From a virus, in the UHGV virus genome UHGV-1695514: a stretch of 18,900 nucleotides of DNA; one strand, 5' to 3'. Of the stretch, positions 845 to 7,340 are shown piece by piece. Under the pieces are notes generated by a model. The model was not told the DNA's origin. It made no database searches and was given only the letters and a program-made list of their open reading frames with translations. Position 1 is the first letter of the stretch, and each line of letters begins with the position of its first letter. The position numbers and the translations under genes are program-made.

Positions 845-2368
845 ATGGCGATGTATGAAGTCGGTACCGTCACGGGTGCCGCGTCGCAGGCACGGGTGAC
901 AGGTGCGACAACAAAATGGTCACAGGTGGCGCTGGGGATACTGCCCGGGTCGATTCTGGTGGTCTACCGCAGCGGTAGTGCTGACCTGTATGCGATCAAA
1001 TCCGTGGACAGCGACACGCAACTGACGCTGACCCGGAATATCACCACCGCATTTTCCGGTGCCAGTTACGGCATTATTACCGCTGAAACCGCCAGCACCT
1101 CGTCGTTTGCTAACCAGCTGGCCAGCGCGTTTGCATTCTGGCGTAGTGTAGTGGAGGGCTGGTCGATGGCCCTGACCGGCAGCGGCAATATTACCCTGAC
1201 TGACCCGATCACAGGAAAGCAGGTGACCGTGCCGGCGATAGCCGGGATGGCGAAAGCATCGGATCTTAACGCGCTGGCAAAACTCACCGGAGGAAACAAA
1301 CTCGACGGCTCGCAGGTTATAACCAGCGATAATGCCGGTTTTATTCTCGGTAAGAACTCAGATCTGGCTCTGCTCAAAAAACAGGGGCAAGGCGGGACAA
1401 TTGCCGTTGGCTCGGGAACACCGTTCAGGGTTCAGCGTTCAAGAGCGACCACTGTATCACCGGCAGACACCTTTGATGACATCCTCGTTATTGATGCCAA
1501 CAACCGAACGACACTACCTGGCGCGCTGACTGCCGGCGGCGACATCGACAACACGACGAAGGGGTTGCTGTATACCCAGGCGATTGAGCTGTCATTTAGC
1601 ACGCCATACATCGACTTTCATTTTAACTACAGCACCGACGACTTCACCGGGCGGATTATGGCCACTGCCGCCGATCAAATTAGTGTACAAGGTAGTCATT
1701 GGCGAGTTGACAGGGATCTTCGTGTTGGTGGTATGGCAGATATTGGAGGGTGGGCGCAATGCGGAGTCGACCTTTCGGCCAACAGAACAGACTTTGGTTC
1801 CCCTGCTGATGGTTCGTTGGTTTCAGGCGGACGTATTCGATCCAGAATGCTGGGACGCGGCGGTAACGGTGACACCTCCGGAGCGTGGGGTGGTTTCTAC
1901 CTTGAAGAATACGTTGGGTACAACCACCGGGTGGTACTGTATATGGACGGTTTTGACAGAAAAGATGCCTGGCTCTTTTACACCGGTGGGACAATCTCCA
2001 CCCCTAAAGGCGATGTTATGACCACTGGCTCAGACGTGCGGCTGAAAAAGGATTTTACGGAATCCCAGGAAGGGGCCTCCAGGCGTATTAACGCGCTGGG
2101 GGTATGTGAGTTCAACATGAAAGGCGAAACACGCCGTAGGCGTGGATTTATTGCTCAACAAGCTGAAAAAGTGGACCCGATTTACACTTTCCAAAGCGGT
2201 GATGTAGAAATTGATGGCGAGAAGATCAATATCCTTAACGTAGATCAGACAGCAATTGTCGCAGACCTGGTAACTACCGTTCAGGAGCAATGCAACTGTA
2301 TCGAAAAACTTAAAGAAGAGCTCAAAAATCTAAAGGATCTAGTGATGCAAACGCCAGAAACAGCATAA
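845..2368 (+). CDS. tail fibre protein with C-terminal intramolecular chaperone (peptidase S74-type) autoproteolytic domain
   Basis: ATG 845 preceded by GGAGGA (831-836). 507 aa, Gly/Thr/Ser-rich. Near the C-terminus, TGSDVRLKKDF (Ser codon at 2030-2032) fits the S-D-x-R-x-K self-cleavage signature of endosialidase/T5 L-shaped-fibre chaperone domains, followed by GFIAQQ and a coiled-coil-like tail. Confidence 0.75.
   Translation: MAMYEVGTVTGAASQARVTGATTKWSQVALGILPGSILVVYRSGSADLYAIKSVDSDTQLTLTRNITTAFSGASYGIITAETASTSSFANQLASAFAFWRSVVEGWSMALTGSGNITLTDPITGKQVTVPAIAGMAKASDLNALAKLTGGNKLDGSQVITSDNAGFILGKNSDLALLKKQGQGGTIAVGSGTPFRVQRSRATTVSPADTFDDILVIDANNRTTLPGALTAGGDIDNTTKGLLYTQAIELSFSTPYIDFHFNYSTDDFTGRIMATAADQISVQGSHWRVDRDLRVGGMADIGGWAQCGVDLSANRTDFGSPADGSLVSGGRIRSRMLGRGGNGDTSGAWGGFYLEEYVGYNHRVVLYMDGFDRKDAWLFYTGGTISTPKGDVMTTGSDVRLKKDFTESQEGASRRINALGVCEFNMKGETRRRRGFIAQQAEKVDPIYTFQSGDVEIDGEKINILNVDQTAIVADLVTTVQEQCNCIEKLKEELKNLKDLVMQTPETA
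2030..2368 (+). other. intramolecular chaperone / self-cleaving domain of the tail fibre (domain-level feature)
   Basis: Begins at the Ser of the SDVRLK motif (codon 396); cleavage immediately N-terminal to this Ser is expected by analogy with peptidase S74 domains. Confidence 0.55.
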
Positions 2369-2384
2369 AAGCAACTAATATTGT

Positions 2385-2402
2385 ATGTAAGTACTTACCT
2401 AC
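2385..2402. promoter_or_regulatory. intergenic motif with perfect palindrome GTAAGTACTTAC followed by CTAC; candidate operator/promoter element
   Basis: GTAAGTACTTAC at 2387-2398 is a perfect 12-bp palindrome. Sits about 60 bp upstream of the holin-like gene, with an AT-rich TATAAA-like stretch at 2423-2428. Related copies occur in at least six other intergenic regions. Confidence 0.45.
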
Positions 2403-2464
2403 AATTAGTTTCTAATTTATGATATAAATCTGCCATCCGATTTGACTTATTCATGGAGGAAGAC

Positions 2465-2788
2465 ATGTCAAACGAGATGGCAGGCGTGACGCCAGAGCAG
2501 GTGGAGCGCATTGCCGCAATTGTGGCGCGAGAAGTCGTAGGAAAATTAAGTAAGGAGCTTCGAGATGATATTGGCCAGGAGGTCAACGATCAGCTGCGAA
2601 CCTACTTTGGTGATATGACTCCGGCGCAACATAGCATTCAGCATTCCAACCTGGACAAACTTCTTAATCGGCTCGACACGATTTCAAGCGGGTTCTTTGG
2701 AGGCATTATTTCCAAGATTACCTCGTTCCTGATCACCGTGCTGCTTTTGGGTTTGGCCGCTTATGGCGTGAAAAATGGACTGCAATAA
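2465..2788 (+). CDS. putative holin / lysis membrane protein with a single C-terminal transmembrane segment
   Basis: GGAGG at 2455-2459 with ATG at 2465 (alternative in-frame ATG at 2453 has no RBS). Hydrophilic N-terminal part, then hydrophobic ISKITSFLITVLLLGLAAYGV near the C-terminus. First gene of a cluster ending in a spanin pair. Confidence 0.5.
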   Translation: MSNEMAGVTPEQVERIAAIVAREVVGKLSKELRDDIGQEVNDQLRTYFGDMTPAQHSIQHSNLDKLLNRLDTISSGFFGGIISKITSFLITVLLLGLAAYGVKNGLQ

Positions 2789-2801
2789 CAGGAGAACAAG
2801 G

Positions 2802-3494
2802 ATGAGTACTCCAAGAGGCATTCGTAACAATAACCCTGGTAACCTGGATAAGGGGTCGCCGTGGCAAGGGCTAGTAAACAATCCGGCGGAACCGCGGTTC
2901 TGCACTTTTAAAGACCCCGTATGGGGGATTCGAGCACTGACAGTAACGCTCATCACCTACCATGATAAGCGCCGCGCAAAAGACGGTTCCAGCATCGATA
3001 CGATCCGCGAAGTCATCGAGCGTTGGGCGCCGCCACATGAAAACAACACGGCCGCCTATATCAATGAGGTATCTAAAGCCGTAGGCGTGACGCCGGACAT
3101 GATCATCGATCTGCATGACTACAATACTATGCGGCCGCTGGTGGAGGCGATCATTCGTCATGAGAACGGTCGTGGCCCGTTGAAAACACTCAACAGCTGG
3201 TATTCGGCCGAAGTTATTGACGAAGGTATGCGTCGCGCCGGCGTCGTTAAACCGGTAACTGCAGTGAAAGCGGTACCCGTCACGAAAGAAACAGCCGGCG
3301 CAACGGTGACTGCAGGTATCGGTATTGCGCAGCTGGCGGACGTAATGCCGCAGATCTCCGTTGCGATGGATAAGGCCCAGGGACATATCACCAGCGGGGA
3401 TACCGTTCGCATTATCTTCGGTATTGCGACCATTGTTGTCGCCGGCTTTATTGCCTGGGCGCAGATTCGTAAGCATCAGGCAGGAGTGGTGTAA
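2802..3494 (+). CDS. putative endolysin / cell-wall hydrolase (by position in the lysis cassette), with predicted C-terminal membrane helix
   Basis: AGGAG at 2791-2795 with ATG at 2802 (the listed ORF start at 2775 lacks an RBS). N-terminal conserved-looking IRNNNPGNL motif that I cannot assign to a lysozyme family by eye. C-terminal hydrophobic stretch VRIIFGIATIVVAGFIAWAQI. Lies between the holin-like gene and the spanins. Confidence 0.4.
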   Translation: MSTPRGIRNNNPGNLDKGSPWQGLVNNPAEPRFCTFKDPVWGIRALTVTLITYHDKRRAKDGSSIDTIREVIERWAPPHENNTAAYINEVSKAVGVTPDMIIDLHDYNTMRPLVEAIIRHENGRGPLKTLNSWYSAEVIDEGMRRAGVVKPVTAVKAVPVTKETAGATVTAGIGIAQLADVMPQISVAMDKAQGHITSGDTVRIIFGIATIVVAGFIAWAQIRKHQAGVV

Positions 3495-3496
3495 CC

Positions 3497-3748
3497 ATGA
3501 ACGGCAGCCTGTTTTCAAAGGTCAAATCGACCATCATGACTTTGGCTGCCGTCTTCTTTGTGCTCGTTGGGGCGTACACCTGGGGTGGACGCGCTGCCCG
3601 GCGGGCCATGGAGGAAAAGGCGCAGAGAGAAACCAACAAACGGCTTCAAGGCACAGTGGATGTGAAAAATGAGACGATTAATGAAGTCAGGACTAAGGAT
3701 GCTTCTGCCGTTCATCGCGAGCTTCGCGATAAGTGGATGCGTGATTAA
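3497..3748 (+). CDS. i-spanin (Rz-like inner-membrane spanin subunit)
   Basis: 83 aa; N-terminal TM helix (IMTLAAVFFVLVGAYTW) followed by a charged, helical periplasmic domain. Its 3' end is overlapped in the +1 frame by a lipoprotein gene. Confidence 0.75.
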   Translation: MNGSLFSKVKSTIMTLAAVFFVLVGAYTWGGRAARRAMEEKAQRETNKRLQGTVDVKNETINEVRTKDASAVHRELRDKWMRD

Positions 3749-3890
3749 ACCTCAGACCGTGGGCGTACAATTCTGCGATGGGGCAAACCCTATCTACATC
3801 AGCAAGGACGACGCCCTGACAGAAGAAACTGAGAGAGAAATCCTGATCCACAACACGCTGGGTGAAAGAATTTGTGATTGGGGGCGGTAG
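3669..3890 (+). CDS. o-spanin (Rz1-like outer-membrane lipoprotein), overlapping the 3' end of the i-spanin gene
   Basis: Signal peptide with lipobox AISGC (MRRLMKSGLRMLLPFIASFAISGC); short mature protein with additional Cys residues; overlapped architecture. Start could also be the in-frame ATG at 3681 or 3699. Confidence 0.7.
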   Translation: MRRLMKSGLRMLLPFIASFAISGCVIKPQTVGVQFCDGANPIYISKDDALTEETEREILIHNTLGERICDWGR

Positions 3891-3908
3891 CATTTTATGC
3901 CCCGCCTC

Positions 3909-3960
3909 AGAGGATACGCTGCGTTACACTACCTAAACTATGGCGTATCCTCTTTTCTTC
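3909..3960 (+). terminator. hairpin with 11-bp perfect stem followed by a T-rich tract; probable terminator of the lysis cassette
   Basis: AGAGGATACGC (3909-3919) pairs with GCGTATCCTCT (3943-3953), loop 23 nt, then TTTTCTTC. The loop is longer than in a textbook intrinsic terminator. Confidence 0.45.
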
Positions 3961-4019
3961 ACATCTGTCGTCAGAGCTTGATATTCACGGCATCTAACTG
4001 TGCTTCATTCAACCTCATG

Positions 4020-4078
4020 TTGAATGATCCTGCTTAATGATGTAGATTTGATATGACTACAGTCATAACGTGTAGTCA
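4020..4078 (+). promoter_or_regulatory. candidate sigma70-type promoter with a hairpin/operator overlapping the predicted transcription start
   Basis: TTGAAT (4020-4025), 17-bp spacer, TAGATT (4043-4048). Immediately downstream is the inverted repeat TGACTACA (4054-4061) / TGTAGTCA (4071-4078), and a second palindrome GCTACG-CATACT-CGTAGC at about 4084-4101. Confidence 0.3.
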
Positions 4079-4164
4079 CATTCAAGCTACGCATACTCGT
4101 AGCCTCTAAACCCCACAGGGGGTCGCCGCAACGACAGCATTGTCTCAACGGCTAAGGTGGAAAC

Positions 4165-4563
4165 ATGCATAACGCACTTAACTCATCACGTTCTATTCAA
4201 ACGATTAGAGACTGTACCAACATGATCGCATCGGTTCCTTTGCGTCATTGGGATGACTCGCTCCAAATCCGAGAAATGGGCACACCAGGTGAACTTAAGG
4301 ATCAGCGTTTCATCATTACACTGAAGAGTGACGTGGAAGCAGGTAGCTTTACTATCAAATTATTTGCTGAGTTGATGGTTCTGAACAACCGTTTGCGCTT
4401 CCTCGTGAAGCCCGAAAAACAGTTTCCAGAAGTCGTTTACTGCGAAAGGCAAATTTTTTCGGATATCGAGAGTGAAATTGCTACTTTTGTTAAGGACAAG
4501 TACAGTGTAGATGTTAGTCTTGTCCGTACAGATAAATCAATGGACATGCGGCTTGCAAACTAG
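4165..4563 (+). CDS. hypothetical protein (132 aa), first gene of a low-GC two-gene island
   Basis: ATG 4165 preceded by AAGGTGG (4153-4159). No recognisable motif. The stop TAG 4561-4563 directly abuts the ATG of the next gene. Confidence 0.7.
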   Translation: MHNALNSSRSIQTIRDCTNMIASVPLRHWDDSLQIREMGTPGELKDQRFIITLKSDVEAGSFTIKLFAELMVLNNRLRFLVKPEKQFPEVVYCERQIFSDIESEIATFVKDKYSVDVSLVRTDKSMDMRLAN

Positions 4564-5352
4564 ATGGCACCTTCACTAATCGCGGATTACAAAAAGGTAC
4601 TCTCAGATTTCCCAGATCATGATAAACGCGAAAAAATCCGAGTCGGCTATACGGTTGGCTCGGATTTTTCTGTTTTGCGCCTTACTGAGTGGGCGTTGAC
4701 GGGGTCAAGTTACCCATATTGCCTCACTGTATCTGTGGTAGGGGCGCCAGATAATGAGTGGTTGCAAGAAATTGCAATAGAAATGGATGCCTCTGATAAT
4801 GATGAAGAGGAAATCATTGGCTACATACGTGCTTTAGTCGGTGCTGAACCTGAAGATGATGATGGCATCCAGATCGCTAGATTTGTATACAGAGATTTTC
4901 TGTTTCGGTCACAACAAGGTCACCACAGCGGAGTGCAGATTAAAGGTGCTTTTGTTGATCCTTCCAAGGAAAAGAAAGGCCTTGCCCGCTTAGTATATGG
5001 CTTCCTCCTTAACTGGCACGAGCATATCATCAGCGATGACCATCAGACGGTTTATGGGGCTAAGATATGGGCCGTTGGGATGTTAAAAGTAGGTAGAGTG
5101 CAAGTCTACGATAACATAAAAAGTGATTTTGTAGATGTGCTTACTGAAGGCGGTATCGGTATAAATGGATTCAAGCCTTGGGATGCTATGATGCTCAAAG
5201 AAGCACAGCTAAAGCACTGGAACCCTATGGCGATTAGTATAGACCCATCATCGCAGATTCTAGCCATCATTTCAGCGTCTGACAGGCATCAGTATAATGG
5301 TGTTACTGTTTTTAACAGAGTCGTTAGACGAAGGCTCAGAGTAACGAGATAA
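4564..5352 (+). CDS. hypothetical protein (262 aa), second gene of the low-GC island
   Basis: ATG immediately follows the upstream stop (probably co-translated). Acidic stretch (DASDNDEEEI, EPEDDDG). No recognisable catalytic motif. Followed by an intrinsic terminator. Confidence 0.7.
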   Translation: MAPSLIADYKKVLSDFPDHDKREKIRVGYTVGSDFSVLRLTEWALTGSSYPYCLTVSVVGAPDNEWLQEIAIEMDASDNDEEEIIGYIRALVGAEPEDDDGIQIARFVYRDFLFRSQQGHHSGVQIKGAFVDPSKEKKGLARLVYGFLLNWHEHIISDDHQTVYGAKIWAVGMLKVGRVQVYDNIKSDFVDVLTEGGIGINGFKPWDAMMLKEAQLKHWNPMAISIDPSSQILAIISASDRHQYNGVTVFNRVVRRRLRVTR

Positions 5353-5373
5353 ACCCGCTGCGGCGGGTTTTTT
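5353..5373 (+). terminator. rho-independent terminator
   Basis: CCCGC-TGCG-GCGGG hairpin (5354-5367) followed by TTTTTT (5368-5373), directly after the stop at 5350-5352. Confidence 0.8.
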
Positions 5374-5456
5374 GTTGCCATCCTTTAATTAACTCCAAAG
5401 TACCTACCATTTCACCTTTACACCGCAGCCGTAGGCATTTAGGCTATATCGCATAT

Positions 5457-5474
5457 AAGAAAACAAGTTGTTTC
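5457..5474. promoter_or_regulatory. palindromic operator-like element AGAAAACAAGTTGTTTC upstream of parA
   Basis: AAACAA-G-TTGTTT palindrome at 5461-5473, ending 35 bp before the parA start. A near-identical element (AGAAAACAACTTGTTT) precedes the helicase gene. Confidence 0.45.
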
Positions 5475-5508
5475 ATACGACGATAAATCACACGTAGGGA
5501 TATCACGA

Positions 5509-6174
5509 ATGACCCAGATCATTGTGGTGGGCGGCACCAAGGGTGGCCCAGGCAAATCGACTGTTGCTCAGCAAATTGCAGCCTGTCTGAAAATCAAAAA
5601 GAAAAAGAAAGTCCAGATCACTGATATCGACATCCAGCGCACCACGACAGGGTGGTGTGAAGACCGCCGGCACAATGAAGAACTGGAGCTGATCCCGTTC
5701 GCCTATGTCCAGGATGACATCATCAAACACATCACTTCGCTTCGCGGCCGTTTCGATTACGTCGTCGTTGACGCTGGTGGTTTCGACTCCGAAATTCAGC
5801 GCCAGGCTATGCTGATGGCCAACGTGATCCTTATCCCGCTTCGCCCGAAACGTCGCGATCTGAAATCCTTGCGTGACATCGACCCCATCGTCGACAGCGT
5901 TAGCAGCGTGAATGACCAAATCAAAATCCGTGCTGTAATGAACCAGTGCCCGTCTCTGCCTTCCCAGGCTGCGCGCATTATCGCTGCAAAAGAAATTGTC
6001 GAAACCTTTGGCATCGAGGCGGTACCGGTGAATCTTTACAACCGCAACGTCTATGACGATGCCGAAGAGGCGGGCCGTTCCATCTTTGAGATGACCGGAG
6101 CCGAACGCGACAAAAAGGCTGAGGCCGAGATTGAAGCATTAGTAGAATACGTAATGACCTTGGAGGGTGAATAA
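5509..6174 (+). CDS. parA: ParA-family partition ATPase, small type Ib (ParF-like, no N-terminal HTH)
   Basis: Deviant Walker A GGTKGGPGKST near the N-terminus, Walker B-like FDYVVVDAGG, overall ParF-like layout, 221 aa. RBS TAGGGA 8 nt upstream. Stop overlaps the start of the next gene. Confidence 0.8.
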   Translation: MTQIIVVGGTKGGPGKSTVAQQIAACLKIKKKKKVQITDIDIQRTTTGWCEDRRHNEELELIPFAYVQDDIIKHITSLRGRFDYVVVDAGGFDSEIQRQAMLMANVILIPLRPKRRDLKSLRDIDPIVDSVSSVNDQIKIRAVMNQCPSLPSQAARIIAAKEIVETFGIEAVPVNLYNRNVYDDAEEAGRSIFEMTGAERDKKAEAEIEALVEYVMTLEGE

Positions 6175-6536: not shown

Positions 6537-6581
6537 ATAAGAGGCGTCGAAAGATGCCTTTAACTCAAAAGGACTTTGTTT

Positions 6582-7340
6582 GTGCTGTACAAATACGTAG
6601 GGCATGAAGACCCAAACGAATTAATCAAAATTCTTAAATTCTTCATCGAAGATGGAACCATCCGAGCCACCCGGCCACACGACTTCAATGATCCTGCCGA
6701 GTTCAAAGCCAAATTTAGTTTTGACGCCACGATCCAAGAGAAGCTTGTCCGATATCATGAGATGTGGCCTGGCAAAAGCGACGATGACGGTGAGAACTGG
6801 TTAAGAGGGCGAACCAAAAACGCCGAAGAGTTTGACGCCTATATGCTGCGCGGAAATCTGCTTTTGGATACTGGTGTGATATGCCTCACCAGAACTGACA
6901 CTAATTACCTGATGTGGTCGCATTACGCCAGCTCCCACTCTGGATTTTGCATAGGGTTTGATGACGCTATTGTGGAAGCGCTGGATGACCGACACACAGC
7001 GTTAAACGGTGACGTGGAGTACGTGAAATCGCCGCCTGAAGTGAACTTCTATACCGCTGATGTGTACGACATTGTCAGAGCCATCTTTCTGCACAAGGGT
7101 GAGAGCTGGAAGTACGAAGAAGAGTTCCGGATTATCTCTGAGCTGCCAGGGCTTAAGAAGTTGGACACCTCGCTCATCAAAGAGATTTCTATCGGATGCA
7201 AACCCTATCCAGAGCTGGAAAGTTTTGCCCGTGAACTGCTGGACAGCAATCTGGCCGTGTACAAAATGCTTTGCCCTACCGACTCGTACCAACTGAAGCG
7301 TGTGGAGCTGGACAAGAACCTTTCTTTTCAAGGTTACTAG
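6582..7340 (+). CDS. DUF2971-like protein of unknown function
   Basis: N-terminal LYKY motif, FNDP-AEF, and a central MWSHYA...GFCIGFD block resemble my recollection of the DUF2971 family. Start is ambiguous: GTG 6582 (AAGGA 9 nt upstream) or TTG 6576. Lower GC than flanking genes. Confidence 0.5.
   Translation: MLYKYVGHEDPNELIKILKFFIEDGTIRATRPHDFNDPAEFKAKFSFDATIQEKLVRYHEMWPGKSDDDGENWLRGRTKNAEEFDAYMLRGNLLLDTGVICLTRTDTNYLMWSHYASSHSGFCIGFDDAIVEALDDRHTALNGDVEYVKSPPEVNFYTADVYDIVRAIFLHKGESWKYEEEFRIISELPGLKKLDTSLIKEISIGCKPYPELESFARELLDSNLAVYKMLCPTDSYQLKRVELDKNLSFQGY

Follow-up and report, generated by a model that had tools for sequence, protein, structure and literature searches.

A probable lysis cassette built around an Enc34/M4Lys-type endolysin in an SSU5-like Klebsiella phage-plasmid

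This study concerns four adjacent genes in UHGV virus genome UHGV-1695514, of which a stretch of 18,900 nucleotides (hereafter the window) was analysed. At positions 2465-3890, right after a tail-fibre gene (845-2368), four tightly packed open reading frames (ORFs) are found on the + strand, as a first-pass annotation made from the sequence letters had correctly described; it had read them as a lysis cassette with an atypical endolysin candidate, a holin-like protein and a pair of spanins. Our data support the cassette reading, with an enzyme of a lytic family standing beside a spanin pair. We consider it probable that the four genes are the late operon by which a phage-plasmid of the SSU5 type lyses its host, with an endolysin of the chi/Enc34/M4Lys type at its centre.

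Gene content and host element of the cassette

By sequence comparison, the host element is an SSU5-like Klebsiella phage-plasmid. The cassette region is 98-98.5% identical at the nucleotide level to Klebsiella phage-plasmids such as pJN2-26 and vB_KpnS_p4727, and the DNA flanking the cassette is 100% identical to the Klebsiella pneumoniae plasmid NZ_CP089764. The four genes (Table 1) are separated by 13 nt, 2 nt and -80 nt, the last value being the overlap of the o-spanin gene with the i-spanin gene. In pJN2-26 they are annotated, by similarity to Salmonella phage SSU5, as 'putative holin', 'putative endolysin', 'hypothetical protein' and 'putative Rz1', and the SSU5 genes themselves have long been labelled 'putative holin/endolysin'. 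A promoter and terminator scan of 2200-4300 returned nothing exceeding the shuffled background. The tail-fibre gene in front of the cassette (+ strand) encodes a protein of 507 aa (phrog_1980) that harbors a Peptidase_S74 intramolecular chaperone domain at its C-terminus (residues 396-445); in pJN2-26 a 12-kb tail-fibre gene precedes the counterpart of this gene.

Table 1. Genes and domains of the candidate lysis cassette in the window
Feature	Position	Strand	Description
Holin-position gene (gene 1)	2465..2788	+	107 aa; phrog_5093, E=6e-68
Endolysin (gene 2), Enc34/chi gp38/M4Lys-type	2802..3494	+	230 aa; phrog_873, E=7e-87; 7Q47, E=5e-56
Endolysin catalytic domain, PHA02564-type, all-helical lysozyme-like	2802..3251	+	residues ~1-150
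Endolysin C-terminal membrane domain	3252..3494	+	strong transmembrane helix at residues 201-222 = nt 3402-3467
i-spanin (gene 3)	3497..3748	+	83 aa; phrog_1026, E=6e-25; 31% identity to chi gp39, E=2e-6
o-spanin (gene 4)	3669..3890	+	73 aa; phrog_1275, E=1e-23; 49% identity to chi gp40, E=2e-16

The spanin pair was confirmed as the first-pass annotation had described it, namely a protein with a transmembrane (TM) segment overlapped by a lipobox lipoprotein, and both of the PHROGs that they match are labelled 'Rz-like spanin'. The i-spanin has its TM segment at the N-terminus, at about residues 9-27, followed by a charged periplasmic part of 55 aa that ends in RDKWMRD. The o-spanin carries the lipobox AISG/C, with Cys24 encoded at 3738-3740 and Val (not Asp) at the +2 position; it has an alternative start at 3681 and further cysteines at 36 and 69. 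A spanin survey (Kongari et al. 2018, PMC6139136) assigned the o-spanin of SSU5 to the Chi family and treated the i-spanin of SSU5 as a singleton. The window pair resembles the Chi-family spanins in its overlapped architecture, in the identity of its o-spanin to chi gp40 and in the C-terminal KWMR motif that the i-spanins share, and differs from them in that its i-spanin is very short and only distantly similar to chi gp39.

Some annotations of related spanin genes deserve mention. The 'putative Rz1' coding sequence of pJN2-26 (L001 7342-7485, equal to window 3741-3884) begins at a GTG just after the lipobox cysteine and thus leaves out both the lipobox and the signal peptide; the complete ORF there is intact and includes MRRLMKSGLRMLLPFIASFAISGC, and the i-spanin of pJN2-26 is annotated merely as 'hypothetical protein'. 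In phage chi, gp37 (L002 1144-1482) is labelled 'Rz-like spanin' by RefSeq and PHROGs (phrog_7686), which is probably a propagated annotation error, because the spanins of chi are a different pair, namely gp39 and gp40.

Family and membrane domain of the endolysin

The 2802 start of the endolysin gene is preceded by the Shine-Dalgarno sequence AGGAGA. An alternative start at 2775, which would give a protein of 239 aa, was rejected, as it is closed in many of the homologous loci and is without a Shine-Dalgarno sequence. The first-pass annotation had found none of the familiar catalytic signatures in this protein, and this agrees with the searches: no Pfam or NCBIfam model matches the endolysin, which is why no signature is recognisable by eye. 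It had also proposed profile and structure prediction of the 2802-3494 product, and both were run. With PHROGs the protein was placed in phrog_873, labelled 'endolysin', and in a sequence search of the PDB (phmmer) its residues 2-153 matched 7Q47 (E=5.3e-56), the catalytic-domain crystal structure of the Hafnia phage Enc34 endolysin ORF39 (PMC8943055). An AlphaFold2 model, built on 23 homologues, reached a predicted local distance difference test (pLDDT) score of 84-96 across the catalytic domain, and its top Foldseek match was again 7Q47, with E=2e-16, a TM-score of 0.81 and 60% identity. The family matched is thus a lytic one, and not the non-lytic family that would have spoken against the cassette reading.

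In Enc34, the catalytic and substrate-positioning residues are Glu131, Tyr95 and Trp79 (Cernooka et al., PMC8943055). Their counterparts in the window protein are Glu121 (codon 3162-3164), Tyr86 and Trp75, and all three are invariant in alignments of 14 and of 23 homologues. The IRNNNPGNL motif, which had been remarked upon at first sight, occupies residues 7-15, and G6, N11, P12, G13 and N14 are invariant in the 23 homologues. Against chi gp38 the endolysin shows 55% identity over residues 4-228 of 230 (E=8e-90), so that the alignment includes the membrane domain with its PVTKET linker, proximal helix, terminal TM helix and basic tail; M4Lys of phage BSPM4 matches similarly. Taken together, the comparisons support the view that gene 2 encodes a genuine hydrolase of peptidoglycan, from an uncommon class that has its membrane domain at the C-terminus, and the endolysin and the spanins are further members of known, partly characterised families. 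The atypical, C-terminally anchored class itself is already published, from Siskin in 2019 (PMC6498227) through M4Lys in 2020 (PMC7143992) to the Enc34 structure in 2022 (PMC8943055).

The membrane domain is composed of a linker with the conserved PVTKET, a helix at about residues 165-190, a loop, the TM helix 201-222 and the basic tail RKHQAGVV. Of the two helices, the terminal one alone is convincing as a TM segment by hydropathy, with a Kyte-Doolittle (KD) value of about 2.2, and the proximal helix is conserved but weakly hydrophobic (KD at most 1.25) and contains Asp and Pro. The single C-terminal helix that the first-pass annotation had assigned to this protein therefore holds by simple hydropathy, while the literature describes the transmembrane domain (TMD) of the homologues as one or two helices: TMHMM gave two for the Siskin (PMC6498227) and Enc34 (PMC8943055) endolysins, and the authors of M4Lys accepted one (PMC7143992). 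The predicted topologies also vary, being N-in/C-in with two helices for Siskin by TMHMM (PMC6498227) and N-out, with a cytoplasmic C-terminus, for M4Lys by Phobius and Phyre2 (PMC7143992). The N-terminus of the window endolysin, MSTPRGIRNNNPGNLDKGSPWQG, is hydrophilic, and we detected no hydrophobic segment of the signal-arrest-release (SAR) kind in residues 1-30, the hydrophobic segments being C-terminal only.

The published behaviour of this class is unusual. The catalytic domain of Enc34 lyses outer-membrane-permeabilised Escherichia coli, Pseudomonas aeruginosa and Hafnia alvei, and the full-length enzyme is toxic (PMC8943055). M4Lys alone lyses E. coli within 20-60 min, azide does not block this lysis, and the lysis is lost when the TMD, or just the last 13 residues, are removed; the TMD alone is bacteriostatic, and high-performance liquid chromatography with mass spectrometry of M4Lys suggested N-acetylglucosaminidase activity (PMC7143992). 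The gene upstream of M4Lys in BSPM4, ORF_37, is neither toxic nor required, and its co-expression does not speed up lysis (PMC7143992). The first-pass annotation had suggested a possible departure from the canonical models in both topology and release, and these reports bear it out, with export that follows neither the holin/endolysin nor the SAR model; for chi-like phages this has been the published view since 2019-2022. In our literature searches no newer work resolving the route by which Enc34/M4Lys-type endolysins cross the membrane was found.

With reference to the characterised systems, the window endolysin is like Enc34 ORF39, chi gp38, M4Lys and the Siskin enzyme in its catalytic fold, its Glu/Tyr/Trp residues, its length, linker, proximal helix, TM helix and basic tail, at 55-60% identity, and, as in the Enc34/chi group, its gene lies between a gene in the holin slot and an overlapped spanin pair. 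The differences concern the surroundings: chi-like phages are virulent siphoviruses of about 59 kb, whereas the element here is an SSU5-type phage-plasmid of about 110 kb, and the upstream partner in chi is unrelated in sequence and has its TM segment at the opposite end.

The gene 1 protein and the phrog_5093 family

The gene 1 protein is the only part of the cassette that has not been described before, and in our literature searches neither the SSU5 cassette nor phrog_5093 turned up as the subject of a functional study. Its ATG at 2465 has GGAGGA 5-10 nt upstream; an in-frame ATG at 2453, examined as a possible dual-start motif, overlaps this Shine-Dalgarno sequence and is missing in the more distant homologues. 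The protein consists of a helical N-terminal domain of about 80 aa, with the invariant His56 and His60 in its core YFGDMTPAQHSIQHSNLDKLL, and of a sole hydrophobic segment (residues 81-99, KD 2.12) that leaves a tail of just 8 aa, YGVKNGLQ, which is a tail-anchored architecture and bears out the single C-terminal TM segment noticed at the first pass. Pfam, NCBIfam and PADLOC gave no match for it, and the phrog_5093 to which it belongs is labelled 'unknown function'.

The protein has the features by which holins are usually named, being small (107 aa), having at least one TMD and being encoded beside the endolysin gene, 13 nt upstream of its start. When the described holin classes were compared, namely I-III (three TM segments; two TM segments; an N-terminal TM segment with a periplasmic domain) and the 'class IV' of Siskin (an N-terminal TM segment, N-out/C-in), its TM placement and topology fitted none of them. 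A relationship to chi gp37 was considered and rejected, as BLASTP gave no similarity (E=2.9) and chi gp37 has its TM segment near the N-terminus. From synteny we infer that gene 1 encodes a component of the lysis cassette, putatively either a holin or a partner of one.

The close homologues of gene 1 are a narrow group, with 31 clusters, and the deposited phage genomes in which it is present number only 12, all of them SSU5-like; across all SSU5-like loci the gene is conserved and syntenic. A profile search covering 1.84 billion representative proteins extended the family to 56 clusters of relatives with lengths of 94-143 aa. In the alignment of 25 of these 56 clusters with the window protein, the only invariant residues are the two histidines, which lie within the core YFGDMxPxQHxIQHxRxDKLL, and every aligned member has one TM helix at its C-terminal end, followed by 9 residues on average, and no second hydrophobic segment. 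Post-translational insertion with a cytoplasmic N-terminal domain would be the default expectation for such proteins, and the flanking charges are compatible with either orientation. The ten distant members that were tested all belong to phrog_5093, and none of the ten matches Pfam.

At six distant loci the phrog_5093 gene heads a lysis cassette, standing after tail-fibre-like or other genes. A Peptidase_M15_3 endolysin gene lies directly downstream at three of them (L089, L090 and L094) and an Amidase_2 endolysin gene at L093, and at L091 and L092 a 3-TM phrog_8226 'holin' and then a phrog_669 'endolysin' follow. A further small protein with one or two TM segments is encoded after the endolysin at L089, L093 and L094, and at L089 the phrog_5093 gene overlaps the endolysin gene. 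Two of the distant contigs, of 108 and 114 kb, are of phage-plasmid size. Since the family precedes such varied endolysin types, its distant members standing first in cassettes with M15, amidase or SLT-type enzymes, its role would be one in lysis and not a co-adaptation specific to the TMD endolysin, and phrog_5093 appears to be a general component of lysis cassettes that is indifferent to the type of endolysin. Its members need not be pore formers, as they are also found alongside recognised holins.

A comparable architecture is known from the Gram-positive systems XhlA-XhlB-XlyA of Bacillus PBSX and gp24.1/gp26 of SPP1, where a small protein with a soluble N-terminal domain and a C-terminal TM segment, a multi-TM holin and an endolysin occur in this order. 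The gene order there is the same as at L091 and L092, the likeness being one of architecture and order only. Unlike these systems, the SSU5-type cassette has no separate holin, and the XhlA model PF10779 matched neither the window protein (at E<=1) nor the ten distant relatives (at E<=0.5).

Some upstream proteins of other loci were not counted in the family. Those of L037 and L038 have a similar C-terminal TM layout but are without the HxxxH pair, and the L037 protein has no PHROG match. The protein of an Alcaligenaceae prophage (L005) aligns on both histidines and has no PHROG match; it is possibly a relative of phrog_5093.

Proposed mechanism, alternatives and distribution

In the mechanism that we favour, the all-helical lysozyme-like domain of gene 2 would cut the glycan strands of peptidoglycan, with Glu121 as the catalytic acid and with Tyr86 and Trp75 positioning the substrate, by homology to Enc34. 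The C-terminal membrane domain would anchor this enzyme in the inner membrane and, judging from M4Lys and Enc34, may allow it to reach the wall independently of Sec and, when overexpressed, of a holin as well; the terminal helix would be required for the Sec-independent access. The most likely route would be a lesion in the membrane, made or exploited by the membrane domain itself, so that the protein would act in the manner of a holin-endolysin fusion. The gene 1 protein would be a tail-anchored protein of the inner membrane with a cytoplasmic helical domain bearing the HxxxH pair, and its synteny suggests that it times or gates lysis. Once the wall is cut, the spanins, like their homologues, would disrupt the outer membrane by fusing the two membranes.

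Chief among the rivals is the classical logic, in which the gene 1 protein is the sole hole-forming holin, the endolysin is a tethered cytoplasmic cargo that is inserted as an N-in/C-in hairpin and gains the wall solely by way of the holes, and the membrane domain merely concentrates the enzyme; this is possible, though on balance we doubt it. It is favoured by the SSU5-type cassette having no other small membrane protein besides the spanins, by the conservation of the proximal helix, by the two-helix N-in/C-in prediction for the Siskin homologue (PMC6498227) and by the occurrence of phrog_5093 members ahead of soluble M15 and amidase endolysins, which need a holin. These points are opposed by the lysis that M4Lys achieves without its upstream partner, whose co-expression does not hasten it (PMC7143992). 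Within the cassettes, the proximal helix that would have to complete the hairpin has the low hydropathy and the Asp and Pro residues given above, two of the six distant cassettes have a 3-TM phrog_8226 holin after phrog_5093, three of the six have a small TM protein after the endolysin, and the short tail of gene 1 is without the charges of a holin tail.

In SAR endolysin/pinholin systems, such as those of phage 21 and P1 Lyz, a membrane-tethered endolysin, capable of holin-free lysis on overexpression, is likewise accompanied by a small membrane partner. The window cassette resembles them in having a tethered endolysin with a small membrane partner and differs from them in that the anchor is C-terminal instead of N-terminal, and in the Sec-independence indicated by the azide test on M4Lys (PMC7143992). 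A mirror image of such a system can be imagined, in which the C-terminal helix is a reverse signal-anchor, the catalytic domain is held inactive in the periplasm and the gene 1 protein acts as a pinholin-like depolariser that releases the enzyme, a model of the kind raised by Cernooka et al. (PMC8943055). The basic RKH tail after the TM helix fits a cytoplasmic C-terminus and hence an N-out protein, as does the Phobius and Phyre2 topology for M4Lys (PMC7143992). Nevertheless, we regard this arrangement as unlikely: no machinery is known by which an N-terminal domain of 150-200 aa, once folded, would be exported in the absence of a signal sequence, lysis by M4Lys is insensitive to azide (PMC7143992), and nothing supports the idea that tethering inactivates the PHA02564 fold.

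It is quite improbable that gene 1 is not a lysis gene at all but, for example, a tail-fibre accessory or exclusion protein lying between the tail-fibre and lysis genes. The gene does always follow a tail-fibre-like gene, and it has no informative database match; yet in every locus examined it lies directly upstream of an endolysin or holin gene, whatever the endolysin type, and the preceding tail fibre has its own S74 intramolecular chaperone. That gene 2 encodes a virion-associated enzyme piercing the wall during infection is highly improbable, for although its catalytic domain is shared by internal virion proteins of the K1F gp16 type and by tape-measure and 'structural' proteins of many phages, gene 2 sits between the holin-position gene and the spanin genes, the virion proteins are without a C-terminal TM domain, M4Lys (PMC7143992) and Enc34 ORF39 (PMC8943055) act as lysis proteins, and pJN2-26 has no other annotated endolysin. 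The virion PHA02564 domains, which include the N-terminus of K1F gp16, E1004 Gp29 (PDB 9VVP) and D3112-like 'structural proteins', are 33-45% identical to the catalytic domain here; they are either modules at the N-terminus of large proteins that are ejected or belong to the tail, or else proteins of about 130-190 aa that have no TMD, and they lie outside lysis cassettes.

Several points weigh against the mechanism that we favour. The functional data all stem from homologues, with 54-60% identity to the window endolysin. The holin-independent lysis by M4Lys was seen under strong overexpression and so may not reflect infection, and SAR endolysins likewise lyse without a holin when overexpressed. 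The part given to gene 1 is drawn from synteny alone; the AlphaFold2 model of its protein (pLDDT 48) is too poor for a fold search, and the charged C-terminal tail of the holin type is absent, its 8 aa including one Lys. Finally, no second canonical endolysin was located, none being detected by Pfam as a lysin domain among 20 other ORFs of the window and none being annotated in the near-identical 110-kb pJN2-26, where many genes are hypothetical, so that the absence of another endolysin is not proven.

A broader and more speculative proposal, to which we give only a modest chance, is that phrog_5093 represents a new class of N-in, tail-anchored and endolysin-agnostic lysis timers, with a cytoplasmic HxxxH and a TM segment ending within about 9 residues of the C-terminus. 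In the SSU5 type it would be paired with a tail-anchored endolysin, both inserting post-translationally and free of Sec, and a separate multi-TM holin would be dispensed with as the membrane domain of the endolysin does its job.

Beyond the cassette, the window carries genes of other kinds. Over 3866-5500 the similarity to pJN2-26 stops in the last codons of the o-spanin gene (ERICDWGR against ERLCNW), and two hypothetical genes follow (4165-4563 and 4564-5352; GC about 0.44), with no Pfam or PADLOC match. At this position pJN2-26 has a different gene on the minus strand, and the version of the window is complete in about 32 plasmids; the segment has the look of a slot for variable cargo, set between the modules for lysis and partition. 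Further downstream, just after a ParA-like gene (5509-6174), a 254-aa DUF2971 protein (6576-7340, +) matches the PADLOC candidate defence family PDC-S31 (E=8e-34). A protein with a YafO-type toxin domain (16528-16938, +; E=3.5e-24) has a 205-aa ORF (15901-16518) directly upstream, and a protein with a colicin E1/microcin immunity domain is encoded at 17002-17361 (-; E=9e-7).

The gene upstream of the TMD endolysin was surveyed in 80 IMG/VR loci and three genomes. The phrog_5093 type was found at 25 SSU5-like loci and in Xenorhabdus, a chi-type partner with an N-proximal TM segment at L035, L041, L043 and L045, other, unrelated partners with a C-terminal TM segment at L037, L038 and possibly the Alcaligenaceae prophage L005, and a 2-TM phrog_920 holin at L039 and L044; in a Pasteurella prophage with the TMD endolysin no upstream membrane protein was evident. 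TMD-less versions of the enzyme, of 160-190 aa, also exist, and the same catalytic domain is present in K1F-type gp16, tape-measure and 'structural' proteins. Because the upstream partners vary and TMD-less and virion versions occur, the endolysin is, by these comparisons, modular, with its partner freely exchanged.

Some irregular loci were also observed. In the SSU5-like element of a Xenorhabdus hominickii contig, two extra genes (L003 3205-4181; 107 and 218 aa, with no TM segment and no Pfam match) lie between the endolysin and i-spanin genes. At L031-L034 of IMG/VR the gene before the TMD endolysin encodes a protein of about 150 aa with a lipobox-like LLTSC, which may be a lipoprotein or the o-spanin of a rearranged cassette. 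The Staphylococcus-named phage records GU169904 (SA1) and PV593182 (SVV09-A) contain a full-length chi-type TMD endolysin of the Gram-negative kind (47-55% identity), and one of these genomes is chi-like, at 58.8 kb, which suggests that the host is mislabelled or the assembly mixed.

The C-terminal TMD architecture has been held to be limited to Chivirus and close relatives (PMC8943055), and by our survey this limit is too narrow. In the widespread phage-plasmids of the SSU5 type, present in Klebsiella, E. coli, Salmonella, Cronobacter, Xenorhabdus and others, the Enc34/M4Lys class is the standard endolysin, and it is also found in Pasteurella and Alcaligenaceae prophages. The cassette offers a comparison made by nature, in which the same endolysin and spanins are joined to a partner of opposite TM placement, which bears on how an enzyme of about 200 aa, with no membrane helix but the C-terminal one, reaches the periplasm. 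Moreover, the recurrence of phrog_5093 ahead of four types of endolysin makes it a tractable candidate for a new class of holins or holin accessories.

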